From IMG/VR virus record IMGVR_UViG_3300045988_151594: a stretch of 52,993 bases of DNA. One strand, 5' to 3'. The notes beneath the pieces were generated by a model. That model searched no databases and had not been told where the DNA came from. It worked only from the letters and a program-made list of their open reading frames with translations. The DNA comes from a virus. Shown piece after piece: positions 35,973 to 49,077 of the stretch. The position numbers and the translations under genes were made by a program. Numbering within the stretch: position 1 is the first letter of the stretch; the number at the start of each line of letters is the position of its first letter.

Positions 35973-38177
35973 ATGTCTTATAATAAAAAAGTATGGAAAA
36001 GTGGAGACAGAATTACAAAAGAAGCGTTAAACAATATGGAAAATGGTATAGAGGCAGCACATCAAAATTCAGGTGGAGGTGGTACATCGTATGATGATAC
36101 TGAAATAAAAACTGATATAAATAATATTAAAACTGATTTAGGTACTGCACAACTAACTACAACTGCTAAAGATGTTAAAGGGGCAGTAAATGAAGTTAAT
36201 GCACAATATAAAGATATTGCGAACTACGGATTGACTATAGGTGAAGATGGAAAAGCATATTTGATGAATGAAAAAGGAGTTAAATTTGGAACTGGAATAG
36301 AATTTCCTTCTGATGTAGATTTAACAACATTAAAGCTTACTGTAGATGGTCAAACTCTTAAATTGATGAATGGTAGTACAGAATTAGCAAATGTGACTTT
36401 ACCAAGCACAACAGTTACAGATAAACAGTTATCTACTGTGATACAATCTAAGATAGACGATGGGACACTTACAAGTCTTGTATTAGGAGACAATAGTGTT
36501 TCATCATCTAATATACAAGACGGAGCAATAACTTTTACAAAGCTAAACGGAGTATCAGTAGAGAAATTTGATTATATAGAATACCAAAATTGCAAAATTA
36601 CAAATACAACTGGAGAAATAGTATCAAGTACAGGAAAACATGTTACAAGAGCATATCCTGTAAGTCCAGGAAATTTTATATATATGTATGGGTATTTTTG
36701 GAATTATAATGATTGCCAAGGTGCTTACTATGATAAAGATAATAAGTTCTTAAGCACTTTTCAAGGTGGTATAGTTTCTCATAAGCACTATTATGGTAAA
36801 GCTCCTGAAAATGCGTATTTCGTAAGATTTACAATATTAGACGAAAATAAAGATATAATATGTTTTGGGAATCCATTAAAAAATTATCCTAAAAATTTAT
36901 GCCTTAATTCAGAATTAAATAAAGCAATAAGTAGCATGATAGGTGAAATTGGATTACCTTCTAAATCGGTAGATGCGAAAGCTTTAAATATAATTAGAAA
37001 AAAAAGCTATAATAAAATTGATTATTCAACTTTAGTGAACTTTTATCCTTTAGCCAATAATGTATATAAAGGCAAATGGAAAGGTTCAGCAAAATGTTAT
37101 CTAGAAAAAGGAGTATCTTATAAAACAATAACAAATATTACAGATTTATGGTATTTTGTTTTTTTTAAAGATAATAAAATAGTTGGTTCAAGCAAAGGAA
37201 ATAGTGATATATTTGGTTCTTATACAGACGACATTGTTAATTATATTCATCACTATACTTTTACTCTTCCTAACAATTTAGATTTTGATGATTTTATATT
37301 TGTTCTTGCTCCTACTCAAGCAATTAGTGATATAAAAGTTGTTATATCAGAAGAAAGCGAATTTGGATTATATGATGATGATTATGCTGAATATTCTTTT
37401 ACCGATGATGATTTGACAAACACTATAAAATATATAATGAATAAAAAAGAAGTTAATGGATTAGATGGGAATATATGTATAGCTATGGGTGATAGTTATA
37501 CAGTACAAATGGCTACTCCGTTAAAAAATATGATAAAAAAATATGGAATGACTATTGATAATAGAGGAATTGTATCAAGTTCAATTTGTGGCGATGAGGC
37601 AGGGAATAAAGGATATCAACCAATGTGGAAACGAACTAAAAATATTTGTGAAGAATATACTACAAATGGAACAGCTGATAATGTAAAATTAATATTATTT
37701 ATGGGTGGAGCAAATGATGGATTTGGTATAAATACTTGGATAGGGACAGGAATAAATGACACAAATAATGAGCATATTTATGGTGCTATGCACACTATAC
37801 TTAATTCTTTCAGAAAAACTTTTAAAAATGCAAAAATAATAGTTGTTTTACAACCATCAAGTTATAATAGAACTGTTTCAAGTATTACGGATGATTCAAC
37901 AGCCAAACTATTAGGTTTTTCAGGTTTGACAGAATTACAACTATTAGATGATTATCAATTTTCAAATTATAGTATGTTTGTAAAAGAAAAAGCAGTAAAA
38001 GAAGTCGCAGAGTTTTATAACTGCAAGATAGTTGATTGTTGCTTTGATTGGCATAGTGTTTTAAACGAAAATGATAGAGTGAATTACTGGAAGAGCGATA
38101 AATTACATCTTACAAATTTAGGATACCAAGATGTTGTTAATGCTGAAGAAAAGGCAATAATAGAGATATTTGGATAG
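35973..38177 (+). CDS. Tail fibre / receptor-binding protein 2 with a C-terminal SGNH hydrolase domain
   Basis: The N-terminus 'MSYNKKVWKSGDRITKEALNNMENGIEAAHQ...YDDTEIK' is paralogous to that of 30441..33524. SGNH blocks 'IAMGDSYT', 'MGGANDG', 'DKLHLT'. Confidence 0.8.
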   Translation: MSYNKKVWKSGDRITKEALNNMENGIEAAHQNSGGGGTSYDDTEIKTDINNIKTDLGTAQLTTTAKDVKGAVNEVNAQYKDIANYGLTIGEDGKAYLMNEKGVKFGTGIEFPSDVDLTTLKLTVDGQTLKLMNGSTELANVTLPSTTVTDKQLSTVIQSKIDDGTLTSLVLGDNSVSSSNIQDGAITFTKLNGVSVEKFDYIEYQNCKITNTTGEIVSSTGKHVTRAYPVSPGNFIYMYGYFWNYNDCQGAYYDKDNKFLSTFQGGIVSHKHYYGKAPENAYFVRFTILDENKDIICFGNPLKNYPKNLCLNSELNKAISSMIGEIGLPSKSVDAKALNIIRKKSYNKIDYSTLVNFYPLANNVYKGKWKGSAKCYLEKGVSYKTITNITDLWYFVFFKDNKIVGSSKGNSDIFGSYTDDIVNYIHHYTFTLPNNLDFDDFIFVLAPTQAISDIKVVISEESEFGLYDDDYAEYSFTDDDLTNTIKYIMNKKEVNGLDGNICIAMGDSYTVQMATPLKNMIKKYGMTIDNRGIVSSSICGDEAGNKGYQPMWKRTKNICEEYTTNGTADNVKLILFMGGANDGFGINTWIGTGINDTNNEHIYGAMHTILNSFRKTFKNAKIIVVLQPSSYNRTVSSITDDSTAKLLGFSGLTELQLLDDYQFSNYSMFVKEKAVKEVAEFYNCKIVDCCFDWHSVLNENDRVNYWKSDKLHLTNLGYQDVVNAEEKAIIEIFG

Positions 38178-38284
38178 AATTTTAGGAGTTAAATAACGAA
38201 CTACATAATTTGAATCTATTGCGTAAGAAAAATGTTTATAAAAATGAAGTCATGTTAATACTCTAAATAAAAAGGAGTGTTGGC

Positions 38285-38383
38285 ATGGCTTTATTATATA
38301 TAGCATTAGTATTATGTTTAATAGGTATATTAATAGGTATTCTGTCTATAATAGGGATAATTGTACTTTATAAATCAATATAG
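38285..38383 (+). CDS. 32-aa single-TM hydrophobic peptide
   Basis: RBS 'aaggag' 8 nt upstream. 'MALLYIALVLCLIGILIGILSIIGIIVLYKSI'. Its own terminator follows. Confidence 0.5.
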   Translation: MALLYIALVLCLIGILIGILSIIGIIVLYKSI

Positions 38384-38389
38384 AAAGTT

Positions 38390-38420
38390 AAAGGACTTAA
38401 TTAATTTTAGGTCCTTTTTT
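38390..38420 (+). terminator. Intrinsic terminator
   Basis: 'aaaggac...gtccttt' stem followed by a 'tttttt' run. Confidence 0.65.
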
Positions 38421-38442
38421 AATGTAAAAAAGGGGTGATATT

Positions 38443-38718
38443 ATGGATTTTCATTGCTGGAATGAAGAAGGGTGTACAGTAGAATTAGATGAAAGAGAGA
38501 GACAAGCATATATAGATTATGTTCAAAAGAAAAATCCGGGGCAACAAATTAAATATATTACAGTAAAATTAGATGGAGATTATGTTGATTTGAAATATGA
38601 AGTAGTTCCAATTCCATTTAAAAGGATCCGCAGAATTACAGGCTATTTGGTGGGCGATACAACGACTTGGAATGATGCAAAGTTAGATGAGTTAAAAGAT
38701 AGAGTTAAACATGAATAG
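38443..38718 (+). CDS. Stand-alone protein with an NrdD-type C-terminal glycyl-radical motif
   Basis: RBS 'aaggggtga'. The C-terminus 'RIRRITGYLVGDTTTWNDAKLDELKDRVKHE' matches the class III RNR C-terminal pattern RRxxGYL...N.xK..E...RVKH. Confidence 0.6.
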   Translation: MDFHCWNEEGCTVELDERERQAYIDYVQKKNPGQQIKYITVKLDGDYVDLKYEVVPIPFKRIRRITGYLVGDTTTWNDAKLDELKDRVKHE

Positions 38719-38729
38719 AGGTGTTGTCT

Positions 38730-38963
38730 ATGAGTACAGAAGTAATTGTTGCAATATTAGCATTAATAGGAACATTAGCTGGTTCGTATTTTAGTAACAA
38801 TAAACATACCGCTGTCATGGACGAAAAAATTAAAGATTTAAAGAAAGACATAGAAACCTTATCAGATAGAGTAAATCGCCATAATAACCTTGTAAGTAGG
38901 ATGAGTGTTGTTGAAGAACATATTAAAATGTTAGATGAAATAAATAAAAAAAGAGAAGATTAA
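38730..38963 (+). CDS. N-terminally membrane-anchored coiled-coil protein (possible lysis accessory)
   Basis: ATG 6 nt after 'gaggtg'. TM 'VIVAILALIGTLAGSYF' followed by a coiled coil. It lies upstream of the holin. Confidence 0.5.
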   Translation: MSTEVIVAILALIGTLAGSYFSNNKHTAVMDEKIKDLKKDIETLSDRVNRHNNLVSRMSVVEEHIKMLDEINKKRED

Positions 38964-39106
38964 TTTCCTCTCTTTTTTAATAAATCTTCAATCGCTTCAT
39001 CTAATAGTTTGCTAAGTGGTATTTTACTTTCCTTAGAGTATTCTCTTAGTTTTTTAAGTAATTCTTTATCAATAGCACTACCTATACGTTCTCTATTTTT
39101 TAACAT
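38960..39106 (-). CDS. Ribbon-helix-helix (CopG/Arc-like) protein, 48 aa
   Basis: Minus strand: RBS 'gaggtga' then ATG at 39106. 'MLKNRERIGSAIDKELLKKLREYSKESKIPLSKLLDEAIEDLLKKRGN' has an RHH pattern. The track ORF is N-terminally over-extended. Confidence 0.6.
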   Translation of the reverse strand: MLKNRERIGSAIDKELLKKLREYSKESKIPLSKLLDEAIEDLLKKRGN

Positions 39107-39147
39107 TATAATCACCTCAATATAATTATATAAGTTATGTAACGTTA

Positions 39148-39176
39148 TTGCAAGTGGTATCACTTTATGATATAAT
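39148..39176 (+). promoter_or_regulatory. Sigma-A-type promoter TTGCAA-17-TATAAT (with TG extension) for the HNH-AP2 gene
   Basis: Read directly: 'ttgcaa' at 39148-53, a 17-nt spacer ending 'tga', then 'tataat' at 39171-76. Confidence 0.65.
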
Positions 39177-39208
39177 ATAATTAGAAAACTAATAAAAGAG
39201 GTGGTTTT

Positions 39209-39805
39209 ATGAAAATATGTAAAGTTTGTGGAAATGAATTTGAAAAACTACACTCAAAAGAAATGTGTAAAAAATGTTATAATAGAGAATGGTATAAACA
39301 AAAGCATAATATAAAAAGAACTAAAAAGGATGGAAACAAAATAATAGAATATGAAGATTGTGCAGAAATGATACTTTATAATAATCAATGCAAAGAAGTA
39401 ACAAGAACAATAATAGATTTGGATGATATAAACAAAGTTAAAGTTTTTAAATGGTGTTTAGATGGCAGAGGATATGTTATAAATAGAACTGTAGGTAAAT
39501 TACATAGATTTATTATGGATTGTCCAGATGATAAAGTTGTGGACCATATTAATCATGATAAGTTAAATAATAGAAAATCCAATTTAAGGATATGTACTAA
39601 ACAACAAAATAACATGAATAAAGGTAAAACATCAACTAAAGCTACTGGAGTTTATTGGGATAAATCTGTAAATAAATGGACAGCTCAAATAACAATAAAT
39701 TACAAACATAAGACTTTAGGCAGATTTAATACAAAAGAAGAAGCAGTAAAGGCTAGACAAGAAGCTGAAATCAGATATTTCGGTGAATATAGAAATCAAG
39801 GCTAG
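39209..39805 (+). CDS. Free-standing HNH endonuclease with a C-terminal AP2 DNA-binding domain
   Basis: 'VVDHINHDKLNNRKSNLRICTKQQNNMNK' (HNH). 'TGVYWDKSVNKWTAQITINYKHKTLGRFNTKEEAVKARQEAEIRYFGEY' (AP2). Confidence 0.85.
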   Translation: MKICKVCGNEFEKLHSKEMCKKCYNREWYKQKHNIKRTKKDGNKIIEYEDCAEMILYNNQCKEVTRTIIDLDDINKVKVFKWCLDGRGYVINRTVGKLHRFIMDCPDDKVVDHINHDKLNNRKSNLRICTKQQNNMNKGKTSTKATGVYWDKSVNKWTAQITINYKHKTLGRFNTKEEAVKARQEAEIRYFGEYRNQG

Positions 39806-39844: not shown

Positions 39845-40117
39845 ATGTTAGATTTAAGTGTTATAAGTAATTATTTAGTAGTTGCAGTAATATTAGTATG
39901 TTGTTGTATTGGATATGTAATAAAAACAAGTTTAGATTTTATACCTAATAAATATATACCATTAATCATGGCCTGCATAGGAGTGGTTTTAAACTACTTT
40001 ATAGCAGGCTATTTTAATGTAAATGTATTACTAGGAGGGATGTTGAGTGGTTTAAGTTCTGTAGGACTTCATCAAGCTTTTAAAAATTTAATTGAAAACA
40101 AAGAAGGTGATAAATAA
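39845..40117 (+). CDS. Holin (multi-TM, phi-LC3-like class)
   Basis: 90 aa with three hydrophobic segments and a charged C-terminus 'ENKEGDK'. Its stop overlaps the endolysin start. Confidence 0.8.
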   Translation: MLDLSVISNYLVVAVILVCCCIGYVIKTSLDFIPNKYIPLIMACIGVVLNYFIAGYFNVNVLLGGMLSGLSSVGLHQAFKNLIENKEGDK

Positions 40118-40992
40118 TGAAGACTAAAAATGGTTTTACATTATTAGAAAATGAAAAAGATGTAAAGGAATGGTTATCTAAGCAAAAAGTAACAAGAAAA
40201 ATAACTAGACTTCAGGTGCATATGATGGACTTACCAAATTATAGTACTTGGGAAAAGACTGATAAAAAAGTATTTTCTGAACCTCATTTTGGAAGAACTC
40301 AATCTTTAGATTCTTATGGAAAAAGTAAATGGGGATGCAGTGATGGTCATGGACATTACATAGCCCAACATTTAAATATTTTTCCTGATGGTAAAATAAC
40401 AACTGGTAGAAATCTTAATTCTACTCCAATAGGAATTAGAGGTTGGAATACAAATGCTATCTGTATAGAAATATATGGATGCTTTAACAAGGGCAAAGAT
40501 AAGATGACTGAAGCACAAAAGAAAGCAGTAATATATCTTTATGGATTACTTTGCAAAAGATTTAACATACCTGTAGATATAAGTCATATAAGACCTCATT
40601 GTTGGTTCACTGCTGGAGGAACTTATTTAGGAAAATATATTCCTTCAAGAAGTGCTAAAAAATGTCCCGGTACTAACTTTTGGGGATATGGATGTTCACC
40701 TGAAGGATTTGCTCACTTCATAAAGGATGTAAAAAACTATGTAGATGGTAAAAAAGCAGAACCTAAGAAGAAAGAACAAACTAAGGCAACAAAATTTGAA
40801 ATAGTAACACTTGATAAACTTAATATAAGAAAAGTAGCAGATTGGGATGCAGATCCAGTTACAACAGTTAAGAAGGGGCAACATCTACAAGTAATAGATA
40901 CAGTAGATGCTAAAAATGGAAGTACTTCTATGTATCGCTTAGAATCAGGTTTATACATAACTGCATCTGATAAATATGTAAAGAAAGTATAA
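40117..40992 (+). CDS. Endolysin: N-acetylmuramoyl-L-alanine amidase (Amidase_2-like) + SH3b-like cell-wall-binding domain
   Basis: 'ICIEIYG', 'HIRPHCWF' and 'KKCPGTNFWG' are amidase_2-like blocks. C-terminal 'LNIRKVADWDADPVTTVKKGQHLQVIDTVDAKNGSTSMYRLESGLYI' is SH3-like. Confidence 0.8.
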   Translation: MKTKNGFTLLENEKDVKEWLSKQKVTRKITRLQVHMMDLPNYSTWEKTDKKVFSEPHFGRTQSLDSYGKSKWGCSDGHGHYIAQHLNIFPDGKITTGRNLNSTPIGIRGWNTNAICIEIYGCFNKGKDKMTEAQKKAVIYLYGLLCKRFNIPVDISHIRPHCWFTAGGTYLGKYIPSRSAKKCPGTNFWGYGCSPEGFAHFIKDVKNYVDGKKAEPKKKEQTKATKFEIVTLDKLNIRKVADWDADPVTTVKKGQHLQVIDTVDAKNGSTSMYRLESGLYITASDKYVKKV

Positions 40993-44976: not shown

Positions 44977-45186
44977 ATGGATAAATTAAATGCTTTTTTA
45001 GGCAAATTTACAGTTGAGTGCTTAGAAACTTTAAGTATCGTTTGCTATGATTGGCTAGTAGTAGCCGGATTGATAGCTTTAGTTTTATATATATTCGGTT
45101 GGGAAAAAGGAAAGAAAGTAGGATTAATGTGTCCTGCTATATATATCATAATTAACATATTAAGTAAGGTGTTATGCCATGCTTAA
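44977..45186 (+). CDS. Small two-TM membrane protein
   Basis: RBS 'aaggagg'. 'WLVVAGLIALVLYIFGW' and 'VGLMCPAIYIIINILSKVL'. It overlaps the ATPase start by 8 nt. Confidence 0.6.
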   Translation: MDKLNAFLGKFTVECLETLSIVCYDWLVVAGLIALVLYIFGWEKGKKVGLMCPAIYIIINILSKVLCHA

Positions 45187-47461
45187 TATAATTCCTAGTA
45201 AACCTAAAAGTATGAAATTAAGTGATTATTACGAATATAGAAAATGCGAATATTCAATTATCAGATTAGTTCCTACAAAGAGCAACAAAAATAATAATAC
45301 TGAACAAATAGCATCTCTAATTAATAAAATGTTTAAGCAGTCTAATAAATATATAAATCAAGCTAGTAAAAAGTTAATTATCGTTCAAAAGCCCAAAGTA
45401 TCCTTTTATATTCATATTACAAAAGGAAAGGTCCAATTTTATTTTATAATTCCTAAATCATATCTAAATCAATTTAAAATAAAATTTCAAGAGGTTTGGA
45501 AAAATATAGAGATTGAAGAAGTGGATAATATTCCAATGGATATTAATAGCTGCAGTAAATTTGATTTGCATTATAAATATGATGAGTCATTATCTCTTGC
45601 GGTTGATAAAAGAAATAATGACTTACTCAATAGCAACATGACGATTACATCTATATTGGAAGAAAATGAAATGGTGGGAATATTATATAATTTTATACCG
45701 ACTAGTGAAAAAGAATCTAACTATTTTAGATCTAATACCTATCCAAGAGCAATTCAAAGATACAAAAATGGAGAAAATCTAAAAAAGTCAAAAAATATTA
45801 AAGATTTATCTGTAATAGCATTAAAAAATTTTATCTCACTCATAAACGACCTCTTAAATTGTATTTTAAACGTACCACAAAATAATCAGCTTATACTTAA
45901 TCCTTTACAGTGTGAAATCTCTCATAGCACCAAAAGAAAAGGCGAGAAGGCAATTTGTAAAAATCAGAGTATAATTTTAACCAAATCTAGTGAGAAATCA
46001 AGAGAAATTGAACTTTCTAACGCTTTTTCTAATACTTTCAAGATAATTTCAGATGATAATGAGTTAATCATTAATGAAATTACTAAAAACATTGATATAA
46101 AAAAGACAATCATAAACCATGTGAATATTAATAAGACAACAATTGAAGAAAGCAGTAATTTTATAAGTATGCCGTCTTTAGAGGTTATAAATCAGTTTAA
46201 GATGATAGAACATAATAAGTGCCTAGAGTTGAAAGCCCCTAAGTGTTTAGAAGATGGAGAAATAAGGATTGGAACTGTAAAGAATAAAGAAAATAAACAA
46301 GAGGTATATTACTCCATGGATGAGCAAATGAAAAGACTAGGAAGAGTATTACTTGGAAGTATGGGTAGTGGTAAATCTTATTATATGCAAAATATGGCAA
46401 GTGATATTATAAAAGCTGGTAGAGGATTAGTAGTAATAGATTATATAGATAAATGTCAGCTATCAGATAATATAAAGAAAATAACTTCAAAGGATAAATT
46501 AGTAGAAATTAATTTCAATGATCCTAAGCAAGTTCAATCATTTAACTTCAATGAGTTAATATTTAATGAAGATGATGACATATACTATAAGGTTAATATA
46601 GCTATGCAGAAAGCTGAACAAATGCAATTATTATTAGACAGTATAAATGATGACAATAGTAAACTTACACCCAGAATGCTTAGATATTTTTATGCAGCTG
46701 CTACAGTAGTTTATTATAAGAATGTAAATGCTAGTTTTAAAGACATTATTAATATGTTGAAATATCCAGATAAAAGATTTGAGTTAATAAAGAATGTACC
46801 AGATATTTTAATAGAAGAAATAGAAGATTTAAAAGATCTAGATAAAATAGATAGCAAAGGTAGAGTAGAGAATTATGATAGTAAGATAGATGGAATTCTG
46901 GACCGTGTTAGCTGGTTAAAAACTAATTTATATACAAAACTAGCATTTAATAAAGAAGCTGATAATAATATTAATTTTGTAGAAGCTATGAAGCAGAATA
47001 AAGTAATTCTGATAAAAATACCCGAACAGTATTTTAAAAGCAGAATGATTAGAAATGTAATTGCCACATACTTTTTAAATAAAATTTGGATTAGTAAGCA
47101 AATAGATTGTAGTACACATACAGAATTATTCTTTGATGAGATACATCAATGTTACAACTGCCAACTACTTATGCAAAACATATTGGTAGAATGTAGAAAA
47201 TTTCAATTAACTCCTACTTTAGCTTTGCATTATTTAGACCAATTAACTCCTAAATGTAAAAATAGTGTATTAGCATCTGGGTCTAGTTATTTATTATTGC
47301 AAGGATGTGATGTAAAAGCATTTAAAGAATTATCTACTTACTTCGAGAAAGATGGATATAGCGAAATAGATTTAGCTGAATTAGATAGATATAATGCTTT
47401 ATGCCTAATAAAGAATGAAGAACAAGGATATAGCTCGTTTATATGTAAGCTGCCTAGTTAG
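45179..47461 (+). CDS. 760-aa P-loop NTPase of the VirB4/TraG/HerA/FtsK clade (T4SS-type ATPase-like)
   Basis: Walker A 'LLGSMGSGKSYY' (about 46349-46384). Walker B 'ELFFDEIHQ' (about 47124-47150). 'VECRKFQLTPTLALHYLDQL' block. About 250 aa separate Walker A and B. The roughly 380-aa N-terminal region is unassigned. Confidence 0.65.
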   Translation: MLNIIPSKPKSMKLSDYYEYRKCEYSIIRLVPTKSNKNNNTEQIASLINKMFKQSNKYINQASKKLIIVQKPKVSFYIHITKGKVQFYFIIPKSYLNQFKIKFQEVWKNIEIEEVDNIPMDINSCSKFDLHYKYDESLSLAVDKRNNDLLNSNMTITSILEENEMVGILYNFIPTSEKESNYFRSNTYPRAIQRYKNGENLKKSKNIKDLSVIALKNFISLINDLLNCILNVPQNNQLILNPLQCEISHSTKRKGEKAICKNQSIILTKSSEKSREIELSNAFSNTFKIISDDNELIINEITKNIDIKKTIINHVNINKTTIEESSNFISMPSLEVINQFKMIEHNKCLELKAPKCLEDGEIRIGTVKNKENKQEVYYSMDEQMKRLGRVLLGSMGSGKSYYMQNMASDIIKAGRGLVVIDYIDKCQLSDNIKKITSKDKLVEINFNDPKQVQSFNFNELIFNEDDDIYYKVNIAMQKAEQMQLLLDSINDDNSKLTPRMLRYFYAAATVVYYKNVNASFKDIINMLKYPDKRFELIKNVPDILIEEIEDLKDLDKIDSKGRVENYDSKIDGILDRVSWLKTNLYTKLAFNKEADNNINFVEAMKQNKVILIKIPEQYFKSRMIRNVIATYFLNKIWISKQIDCSTHTELFFDEIHQCYNCQLLMQNILVECRKFQLTPTLALHYLDQLTPKCKNSVLASGSSYLLLQGCDVKAFKELSTYFEKDGYSEIDLAELDRYNALCLIKNEEQGYSSFICKLPS

Positions 47462-47955: not shown

Positions 47956-49077
47956 TTACTTTTTAAATAGCATATCTTCCAAATTATCACTTGCTTTTTT
48001 ATCCATTTCATCAAGTGTATGAGTGTATATATTTAATGTAGTCCTTATATCTGAATGCCCTAACCTAGTTGATACTGTCTTTATATCTGTGCCAGCTGCA
48101 ATTGATAGAGTAGCAGATGAATGCCTTAAATCATACATTCTAATCCTTCTTAAATCGTATCTATCACAAAATCTAACAAATTGGTGGAATAATGTATTCA
48201 TCTTCCACATTTCCAATCTCGTATTTAGGCATACTAGATTATATTGATTAAATAGAACACCATCATTTATTAGTCTGTTTTGTCTTTCCTTCTCTTTTAT
48301 CAATTTTTCAATCAAATAATTAGGTACAGTTATTATTCTTTTAGAATTTTCTGTTTTAGGATCTTTAAAATAAGAATTACCTTCAATCTCATAAATACTT
48401 TTATTAACAAAAATAGTATTCTTTTCAAAATTGACATCGTCCCAGCTTAAAGCCATAGCTTCACCTTTTCTAAGTCCAGCAAGTAACATTAATAATAAAG
48501 GTAGTTCTAATGCCTTATTTTCTACACATTTAATAGCTTTTAAGGCTTCTTCTTTGGTCCAGCTGGTGGCCTTAACCTTAATATTTTTTTTAGGAACTTT
48601 TATAAAATCTGTTATATTTTCACTTGTTTCTCTAAAACGATAAGCATCTCTTAAAACTACTCTAAGGGAAGCATATCTAGCTTCTGCACTACTTCCACCA
48701 TGTTCTTTATATATTTTATTTGCCCACTGTTGCAATTGGTATACAGTTACTTCACTTAATTTAGTATCTTTAAAAAAGGGCTCTATTGATGCTTTTATGA
48801 TGCTTCTTCTCTTTTTTATAGTATATGGAGATAAATTATTAGTATTATCTTCTAAAAATTTATAACATCTATCTACTAATGTTATATCTTTACTTATTAC
48901 AAACTTGTTTTTATTAATAGAACTTTTTAGATCAATAAGATGTTTATCTGCTTCCTTTTTAGAATCATATTTGCCAACACTTTTTTGTTTTAGTTTCCCT
49001 TTTTCATCATAGTATTCAACTATAACATTATAATTATTGCCTCTCTTACGAATAAATGTGCTTTTTATATTATCCAA
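47956..49077 (-). CDS. int: Tyrosine integrase
   Basis: C-terminal catalytic region 'MYDLRHSSATLSIAAGTDIKTVSTRLGHSDIRTTLNIYTH' (R...HxxR...Y) and an N-terminal SAM-like/arm-binding region. Confidence 0.9.
   Translation of the reverse strand: MDNIKSTFIRKRGNNYNVIVEYYDEKGKLKQKSVGKYDSKKEADKHLIDLKSSINKNKFVISKDITLVDRCYKFLEDNTNNLSPYTIKKRRSIIKASIEPFFKDTKLSEVTVYQLQQWANKIYKEHGGSSAEARYASLRVVLRDAYRFRETSENITDFIKVPKKNIKVKATSWTKEEALKAIKCVENKALELPLLLMLLAGLRKGEAMALSWDDVNFEKNTIFVNKSIYEIEGNSYFKDPKTENSKRIITVPNYLIEKLIKEKERQNRLINDGVLFNQYNLVCLNTRLEMWKMNTLFHQFVRFCDRYDLRRIRMYDLRHSSATLSIAAGTDIKTVSTRLGHSDIRTTLNIYTHTLDEMDKKASDNLEDMLFKK

Follow-up and report, generated by a model that had tools for sequence, protein, structure and literature searches.

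The locus described here raises the question of why a phage would encode, as a separate small protein, the glycyl-radical end of an enzyme that is otherwise missing from its DNA. Glycyl radical enzymes (GREs) are irreversibly cleaved by oxygen. Within the 52,993 nucleotide viral stretch that we analysed (IMG/VR record IMGVR_UViG_3300045988_151594; 'the window' below), a protein of 91 amino acids, here called the mini, ends like the anaerobic or class III ribonucleotide reductase (RNR), NrdD. The only validated glycyl-radical spare parts are YfiD (GrcA) and Y06I of phage T4 (PMC8683613), which rescue oxygen-cleaved pyruvate formate-lyase (PFL) (PMC8683613; PMC13450708); spare parts for GREs other than PFL were described in June 2026 as 'yet to be determined' (PMC13450708). 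The first-pass annotation of the window had suggested that the mini could be a GrcA-like protein for the host NrdD or, alternatively, a decoy that titrates the host activase; comparative genomics strongly supports the GrcA-like core of this idea, and places the mini in a large, mainly chromosomal family.

The mini gene occupies 38443..38718 on the plus strand, stop included, and has an ATG start and 91 codons, the coding part ending at 38715. A ribosome-binding site, AAGGGGTGA, can be read from the sequence at 38430..38438 on the same strand, 4 nt before the ATG, and is invariant in five related phages. The stand-alone ORF with an NrdD-type glycyl-radical C-terminus had been placed exactly by the first-pass annotation, which also noted a ribosome-binding site of its own, although the C-terminal string that it quoted as 35 residues counts 31. 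The N-terminal domain (residues 1–58; 38443..38616, plus strand) is family-specific, with no counterpart in Pfam, the PDB or NrdD; the glycyl-radical loop and C-terminal helix (residues 59–91; 38617..38715, plus strand) give the Pfam, NCBIfam, PHROG and PDB matches. By homology to the extreme C-terminus of NrdD, the putative radical-site glycine is G67 in RITG67YL (codon 38641–38643, plus strand), 24 residues from the C-terminus of the mini.

The Pfam NRDD profile (PF13597) aligns residues 59–90 with its last 30 positions (533–562 of 562) at 29.2 bits (E 5e-7), the gathering cut-off being 26.2, so that the profile check proposed in the first-pass annotation is significant for NRDD; its second profile, Gly_radical (PF01228), had no match, the Pfam scan at E ≤ 10 returning only NRDD and two chance matches. 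Three NCBIfam NrdD equivalogs match the mini with their C-terminal ends (E 7.5e-10 to 7.6e-7), at scores of 28–38 bits against cut-offs of 326–764, which is no full-length equivalog match; NrdD models were the only NCBIfam models to match. PHROG 487 also matches, as do residues 708–738 of the solved anaerobic ribonucleoside-triphosphate reductase in PDB 8p23 (E 2.2e-5). Judged by these comparisons, the homology of the mini to the NrdD C-terminus is well beyond chance. None of the Pfam, NCBIfam or PHROG models matched is dedicated to the mini family, relatives are labelled 'hypothetical' or 'anaerobic ribonucleoside-triphosphate reductase' in the databases, and a PADLOC scan for defence systems gave no match for the mini.

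The mini is nevertheless no NrdD. It shares with NrdD catalytic subunits (PF13597; TIGR02487) the C-terminal loop RxxGY...N.[AG]K..E...R..H, and residues 59–91 align to the last ~30 residues of the T4, P. copri (8p23) and phiCD211 enzymes along RITGYL...WN.AK..E..DRV.H; but at 91 amino acids it lacks the ten-stranded barrel with its finger-loop catalytic cysteine, the ATP-cone and the Cys4 Zn-ribbon that precedes the glycine loop, there being no family-wide conserved cysteines, and it is a separate gene with an N-terminal domain of its own.

In the AF2 model the N-terminal domain is predicted to fold as beta-alpha-beta-beta, with a strand at residues 2–6, a helix at 17–30 and a hairpin at 34–44 and 47–56 (pLDDT 74–87), and the glycine loop, modelled with low confidence (pLDDT 48–72), is predicted to be flexible. 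A Foldseek search of this model against the PDB found no analogue at E ≤ 0.001. In the family alignment E19 and Y23 of the N-terminal domain, and R63, R64, T66, G67, Y68, L69, N77, K80, E83, R87 and H90 of the loop and helix, are invariant; N31, D44, G45, L50, Y52, P56 and F59 are nearly so. Conservation of the glycine in homologues, on which the first-pass annotation had made its proposal depend, is complete at 120/120.

Two N-terminal cysteines, Cys5 (37/120 aligned sequences, window protein counted) and Cys11 (34/120), are found in the phage sub-clade only, to which the His/Cys N-terminus HCWNEEGC (residues 4–11; 38452–38475) is confined; the chromosomal minis have a shorter N-terminus without cysteine. 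A zinc-binding role for Cys5 and Cys11 was set aside because neither residue is conserved beyond the phage sub-clade. Many minis and associated NrdDs also bear short cysteine-rich ends (L065 4669/4983; L185 5285; L091 4948; viral loci L140 and L149), for example ECSCAEF, ECGCCDF, GVCC and SCGEC, and ...ECNCD, ...NCCD and ...ICCS in NrdD; such ends recall the cysteine tails that act as redox shuttles in class I and class II RNRs.

Relatives of the mini are numerous. The best 120 database matches include 118 proteins of 86–104 amino acids, the other two being fragments, and full-length relatives match the window protein at 46–98% identity. An exhaustive profile search over 1.84 billion representatives, clustered at 50% identity, returned 2,680 clusters at E ≤ 1e-3, of which 1,604 remain at E ≤ 1e-10, a score out of reach for the 30-residue NrdD tail by itself; nearly all of the best-scoring 150 listed of these 1,604 clusters are of 83–140 amino acids. 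The window protein has both the size (~83–140 amino acids) and the predicted N-terminal beta-alpha-beta-beta domain of this stand-alone NrdD-type family, which is defined by E19, Y23, D44-G45, L50, Y52 and F59 followed by the invariant stretch RIRRITGYL...WN.AK..E..DRVKH. An in-frame stop lies close upstream of the mini ORF in 90/90 loci. Among 12 distinct phage alleles dN/dS is 0.12 (0.17 for the N-terminal domain and 0.06 for the loop), and the phage minis are thus under purifying selection in both domains. The family occurs in Bacillota, in phages of Bacillota and in other mobile elements: among the 600 matches listed in species-representative genomes there are 570 relatives, the majority from Oscillospiraceae, Ruminococcus and other Clostridia and a smaller number from Erysipelotrichaceae, Negativicutes and Coriobacteriia, and most chromosomal copies are monocistronic and in housekeeping neighbourhoods. 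The phage survey that had been proposed for homologous mini-ORFs yielded at least 534 IMG/VR stretches encoding a relative. The family is mainly chromosomal in Bacillota and is not a phage invention; going by its sequences, it is a large family of candidate autonomous glycyl-radical modules of NrdD type, hitherto undescribed in the literature searched, the coverage of which was incomplete.

The complete module is also fused to the C-terminal end of three longer proteins, P0391 (535 amino acids), P0270 (236) and P0371 (206), whose N-terminal parts look like proteins of conjugative elements; P0270 has a weak, sub-threshold match to DUF3849 (E 0.0046). These fusions suggest that mobile elements other than phages carry the module.

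A connection with class III RNR is apparent from the chromosomal members. Selenomonadaceae have the operon nrdD-mini-nrdG (P0164, in 712 index blocks), and a large group of low-GC Bacillota has nrdD-mini-nrdG-nrdR (P0424, in 329 index blocks on contigs of up to 1.4 Mb). For minis elsewhere in the chromosome we turned to the operator of NrdR, which consists of 16-bp boxes with conserved C4, A6, A8, T9, T11 and G13, separated by a linker of 15–16 bp (PMC13584703). With box definition and spacing taken from that source, we scanned 200 nt upstream of 79 non-redundant chromosomal minis without an adjacent nrdD (one of which, L096, adjoins nrdG). A box of at least 13/16 precedes 32 of the 79, with 0.2–0.7 expected, and tandem boxes 30–33 bp apart precede 22 of the 79, with 0.02–0.13 expected; as a positive control, tandem boxes were found before seven of eight nrdD operons. 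As far as gene order and operator matches indicate, the minis on chromosomes belong to the NrdR/nrdDG regulon.

This genomic linkage does not extend to the window gene and its phage relatives. A tandem pair occurs in just two of the 67 distinct upstream regions from viruses; upstream of the window mini there is no NrdR operator, the 11/16 AT-rich matches found there being rejected because they form no proper pair. Neither nrdD nor nrdG lies within 6 kb of the mini in any of the 80 best IMG/VR loci. In the window itself, tblastn with residues 1–690 of phiCD211 NrdD and with NrdG (E ≤ 1e-3) found no NrdD core and no NrdG, as the first-pass annotation had reported. Because no nrdD, nrdG or NrdR box is nearby, the link between the phage mini and RNR is drawn from its homology with the chromosomal members and should be read as putative.

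In one Selenomonas sp. (locus L096, 4603–5788 on a 457-kb contig) tandem NrdR boxes precede a mini-nrdG pair, and the stretch from the MS-channel gene to the mini contains no nrdD, whereas the sister genomes (L091 and L094) have at that place an nrdD lacking the radical glycine.

The NrdDs that lie beside a mini were informative. In L065 and L183 the NrdD glycine loop is intact and the 30 loop codons of the mini encode an identical peptide, with eight (L065) and two (L183) synonymous differences and no non-synonymous ones; in L065 the similarity of the mini to NrdD starts at FERIRR, after the Zn-ribbon. Loops that are identical with synonymous changes only point to selection on both peptides to fit the same site or partners, rather than to a fresh duplication. 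Elsewhere the radical glycine of NrdD is gone, by three independent routes: the tail has decayed in L181 and L182 (...SERLKRFVTHGECASLESFE), the radical glycine is replaced by asparagine in L185 and L186 (...ERIKRIRNYTY...), and in Selenomonadaceae the protein is truncated after the Zn-ribbon (...HHQRIIIPRMNCCD). These Gly-less NrdDs retain the motifs TCCQIDL, MGCRTRV and SS[IV]NYG and are 59–84% identical to the intact NrdD of L065, which indicates that they are working cores and not pseudogenes, and every mini adjoining one of them has a perfect loop. In at least three lineages the mini is, then, evidently the only carrier of a radical glycine in the operon, and the simplest reading is that it would supply that glycine in trans, repeatedly making the in-cis loop dispensable.

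The NrdDs of L065, L181, L183 and L185 have a single cysteine in the first Zn-knuckle (DPICGY) where phiCD211 has CxxC (CMNCG), so that the Zn-ribbon may already be degenerate in NrdDs that co-occur with a mini.

Given these observations we consider it probable that the window mini is a trans-acting glycyl-radical module for class III RNR, activated by the NrdG of the host. A narrower version of this explanation is a strict repair part in the manner of GrcA, which would act only after oxygen has cleaved the host NrdD at its radical glycine, and would replace the lost C-terminal peptide and protect phage replication or the lysogen during exposure to oxygen. The architecture is like that of GrcA, an unrelated N-terminal half joined to a copy of the enzyme's glycine domain; L065 and L183 have an intact NrdD alongside a mini loop of identical protein sequence; and the hosts are gut anaerobes exposed to transient oxygen. 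However, the NrdD lineages without any glycine loop show that the role of the family would not be limited to repair, and the operators in front of chromosomal minis are those of NrdR, which senses dNTPs; we therefore regard repair as the whole of its function as unlikely. Because the mini is the sole glycine carrier in several lineages, 'detachable radical subunit' would be no worse a name for the family than 'oxygen-damage repair part'.

The setting of the gene in the phage bears on what a trans-acting module could be doing there. The window has a G+C content of 26–33% (2-kb windows) and encodes an integrase (47956–49077, minus strand), an antirepressor and Rha; it is a temperate gut phage. 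Its portal protein is at most 36% identical to that of any cultured phage, a megablast of 5 kb against cultured phages gave a single 124-bp match, and the label 'Clostridium sp.' is attached to one RefSeq copy of a cluster member. An ORF of 760 amino acids without a Pfam domain (45179–47461, plus strand) occupies the same place in L097–L100 (760–765 amino acids) and has weak PADLOC similarity to mad8 (E 6e-5) and HerA-like (E 0.0095) models.

The first-pass annotation had the mini sitting alone between a tail-fibre gene and the lysis genes; the place is right, but the gene has close neighbours on both sides. Downstream of the GDSL tail-fibre gene (35973–38177) is a conserved ORF for a very hydrophobic protein of 32 amino acids, MALLYIALVLCLIGILIGILSIIGIIVLYKSI, with its own ribosome-binding site (38285..38383, plus strand). 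L097–L099 have this ORF, whereas L008 does not: there the conserved sequence of the left boundary, ACAATTTGAATCAATTGCGTAAGAAA, runs straight into the hairpin that follows. This hairpin, found in a terminator scan at 38390..38417 (plus strand), has an 11-bp stem and then a T run, parts the mini from the tail-fibre genes and the 32 amino acid ORF, and is kept in L008 and L097–L099. On the other side, 12 nt separate the mini stop from the start of a gene for a 77 amino acid TM/coiled-coil protein (38730..38963, plus strand; sub-threshold coiled-coil matches only in Pfam), which heads the lysis cassette and adjoins the mini in relatives; a holin (Phage_holin_5_2; 39845–40117) and an amidase endolysin (40117–40992), both assigned by Pfam and on the plus strand, complete the cassette, which comes after the mini throughout the related low-GC phages. 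Between the 77 amino acid protein and the holin the window has an insert, an RHH_3 gene (38960–39163, minus strand) and an HNH_3/AP2 homing-endonuclease-like gene (39209–39805), each with terminator-like hairpins (38960–39805). Most relatives are without it, the 77 amino acid gene being followed by holin and amidase so that mini and holin are ~245 nt apart. Near the mini, sigma-70-like sites are no more numerous than in shuffled sequence and none is well placed as a promoter, and an Rfam scan of 37900–39300 found no riboswitch or known RNA. Its position just after a terminator and 12 nt before the lysis cassette suggests that the mini is co-expressed late with holin and endolysin.

In 50 of the 80 best IMG/VR loci the mini lies upstream of a Phage_holin_5_2 holin by ~250 nt or more; this synteny holds from 98% down to 46% mini identity, and the order mini, small TM protein, holin, amidase is kept despite different tail-fibre genes and even different tail modules. 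So tight a linkage to lysis fits poorly with an early role in dNTP supply, and could be taken to mean that the phage protein is a decoy or inhibitor, mimicking the substrate of NrdG or the host's own mini so as to titrate NrdG or block the NrdD barrel, and thereby lowering host dNTP synthesis late in infection or serving as a device for superinfection or host control. Besides a gene placed with lysis rather than replication functions, this would suit the want of NrdR control and the distinctive HCWNEEGC N-terminus of the phage sub-clade. Yet the phage minis keep every residue that is invariant in the chromosomal ones, G67 and the post-glycine helix included, with a loop dN/dS of 0.06; the barrel-contacting helix would be superfluous in a decoy, dNTP supply is normally to a phage's advantage, and the fusion proteins of conjugative elements likewise carry the complete module. 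We hold a decoy to be quite improbable.

The stability of the mini-TM protein-holin-amidase block, together with the L096 pair of mini and nrdG that has no adjacent nrdD, might also hint that the phage protein serves some partner other than NrdD, for instance by acting as an oxygen-sensitive component in the timing of lysis. Such a role has no precedent; the loop is NrdD-specific, no other GRE profile having matched, the chromosomal relatives are wired to nrdD, nrdG and NrdR, and the lysis linkage may be mere modular inheritance, which leaves this reading with very little likelihood. That the mini is a non-functional 3' remnant of a deleted phage nrdD, as might be imagined from large Clostridioides phages such as phiCD211 that carry a full nrdD-nrdG and an NrdD C-terminus 76% identical to that of the mini, is refuted almost beyond doubt by an N-terminal domain (residues 1–58) without similarity to NrdD, a length of 86–104 amino acids in 118/120 homologues, the ribosome-binding site, the dN/dS of 0.12, different tail-fibre neighbours in different phages, and the finding that the nrdD-derived flanking DNA which the first-pass annotation had named as the mark of a remnant is present neither in the window nor in the 80 viral loci.

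The trans-acting module that we favour has its nearest parallel in GrcA/YfiD (IPR011140; PF01228). Like the mini, GrcA is a small stand-alone protein with a glycyl-radical motif near its C-terminus, where it copies the domain of the large enzyme, and with an unrelated N-terminus; for both, activation is attributed to the activase of the copied enzyme, and action in trans is presumed (PMC8683613; PMC13450708). The copied enzyme differs, however, GrcA taking after PFL (PF01228) and the mini after NrdD (PF13597) with no PF01228 homology; the N-terminus of GrcA is disordered whereas that of the mini is predicted to fold; and GrcA only supplements an intact PFL gene, whereas several lineages of the mini family have lost the glycine loop of NrdD itself. 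By analogy the mini would work like GrcA yet stand outside the GrcA family, its expected partners being NrdG and NrdD in place of PFL-AE and PFL. T4 Y06I resembles the mini in that it, too, is an autonomous glycyl-radical protein of a phage and relies on the machinery of the host, but Y06I is a spare part of PFL type, with demonstrated rescue of PFL, and the mini is an NrdD-type module. The T4 genome also has complete nrdD and nrdG genes, unlike the window phage, which has neither. Among RNRs there are conceptual parallels in the split class II enzyme NrdJa/NrdJb and the class I beta subunit, in which a C-terminal part or the radical store is on a separate polypeptide, although their chemistry and folds differ from those of the mini system (PMC9669993). 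We found no description of a split, two-component or trans class III RNR in the literature searched, which was incompletely covered.

If the mini acts as proposed, the NrdG of the host, a radical-SAM activase, would abstract a hydrogen from G67, and the C-terminal 33 residues (59–91) would enter the barrel of a host NrdD that has no loop of its own, or one that has decayed or been cleaved by oxygen, and there the radical of the module would generate the catalytic thiyl radical. The N-terminal domain would stand in for the Zn-ribbon found ahead of the loop in NrdD, and probably docks the module to NrdG, to the NrdD surface or to both. The phage copy would have lost NrdR control and be expressed from the phage programme; since phage minis are without NrdR operators, dATP/NrdR repression would not stop production of the module, and the phage would benefit from an infected or lysogenised anaerobe with extra radical-carrying modules that escape this repression. 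Whether the phage mini would then serve as a spare part after oxygen, or as an extra or even obligatory subunit, depends on the NrdD of the host. In a broader form, to which we would give about an even chance, class III RNR is widely two-component in gut Bacillota, with its glycyl radical on a dissociable subunit of ~10 kDa, and phages and conjugative elements bring in NrdR-free copies that take over or sustain host dNTP synthesis.

The mini family offers a concrete, testable answer to the question of spare parts for the enzyme by which anaerobes make DNA precursors, and the NrdDs that lack their own radical glycine beside a retained mini are natural 'experiments' on it. If true, this would be the first 'spare-part' system outside PFL and the first split class III RNR, with a radical store apart from the catalytic barrel, an arrangement also seen in class I RNR. 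The annotation of class III RNRs would change, in that Gly-less NrdDs would not be pseudogenes and 'NrdD fragments' of ~90 amino acids would not be junk, and the NrdR regulon would gain a component. Host nucleotide metabolism would prove to be the target of an auxiliary gene of only 276 bp that is common in gut phages and mobile elements.
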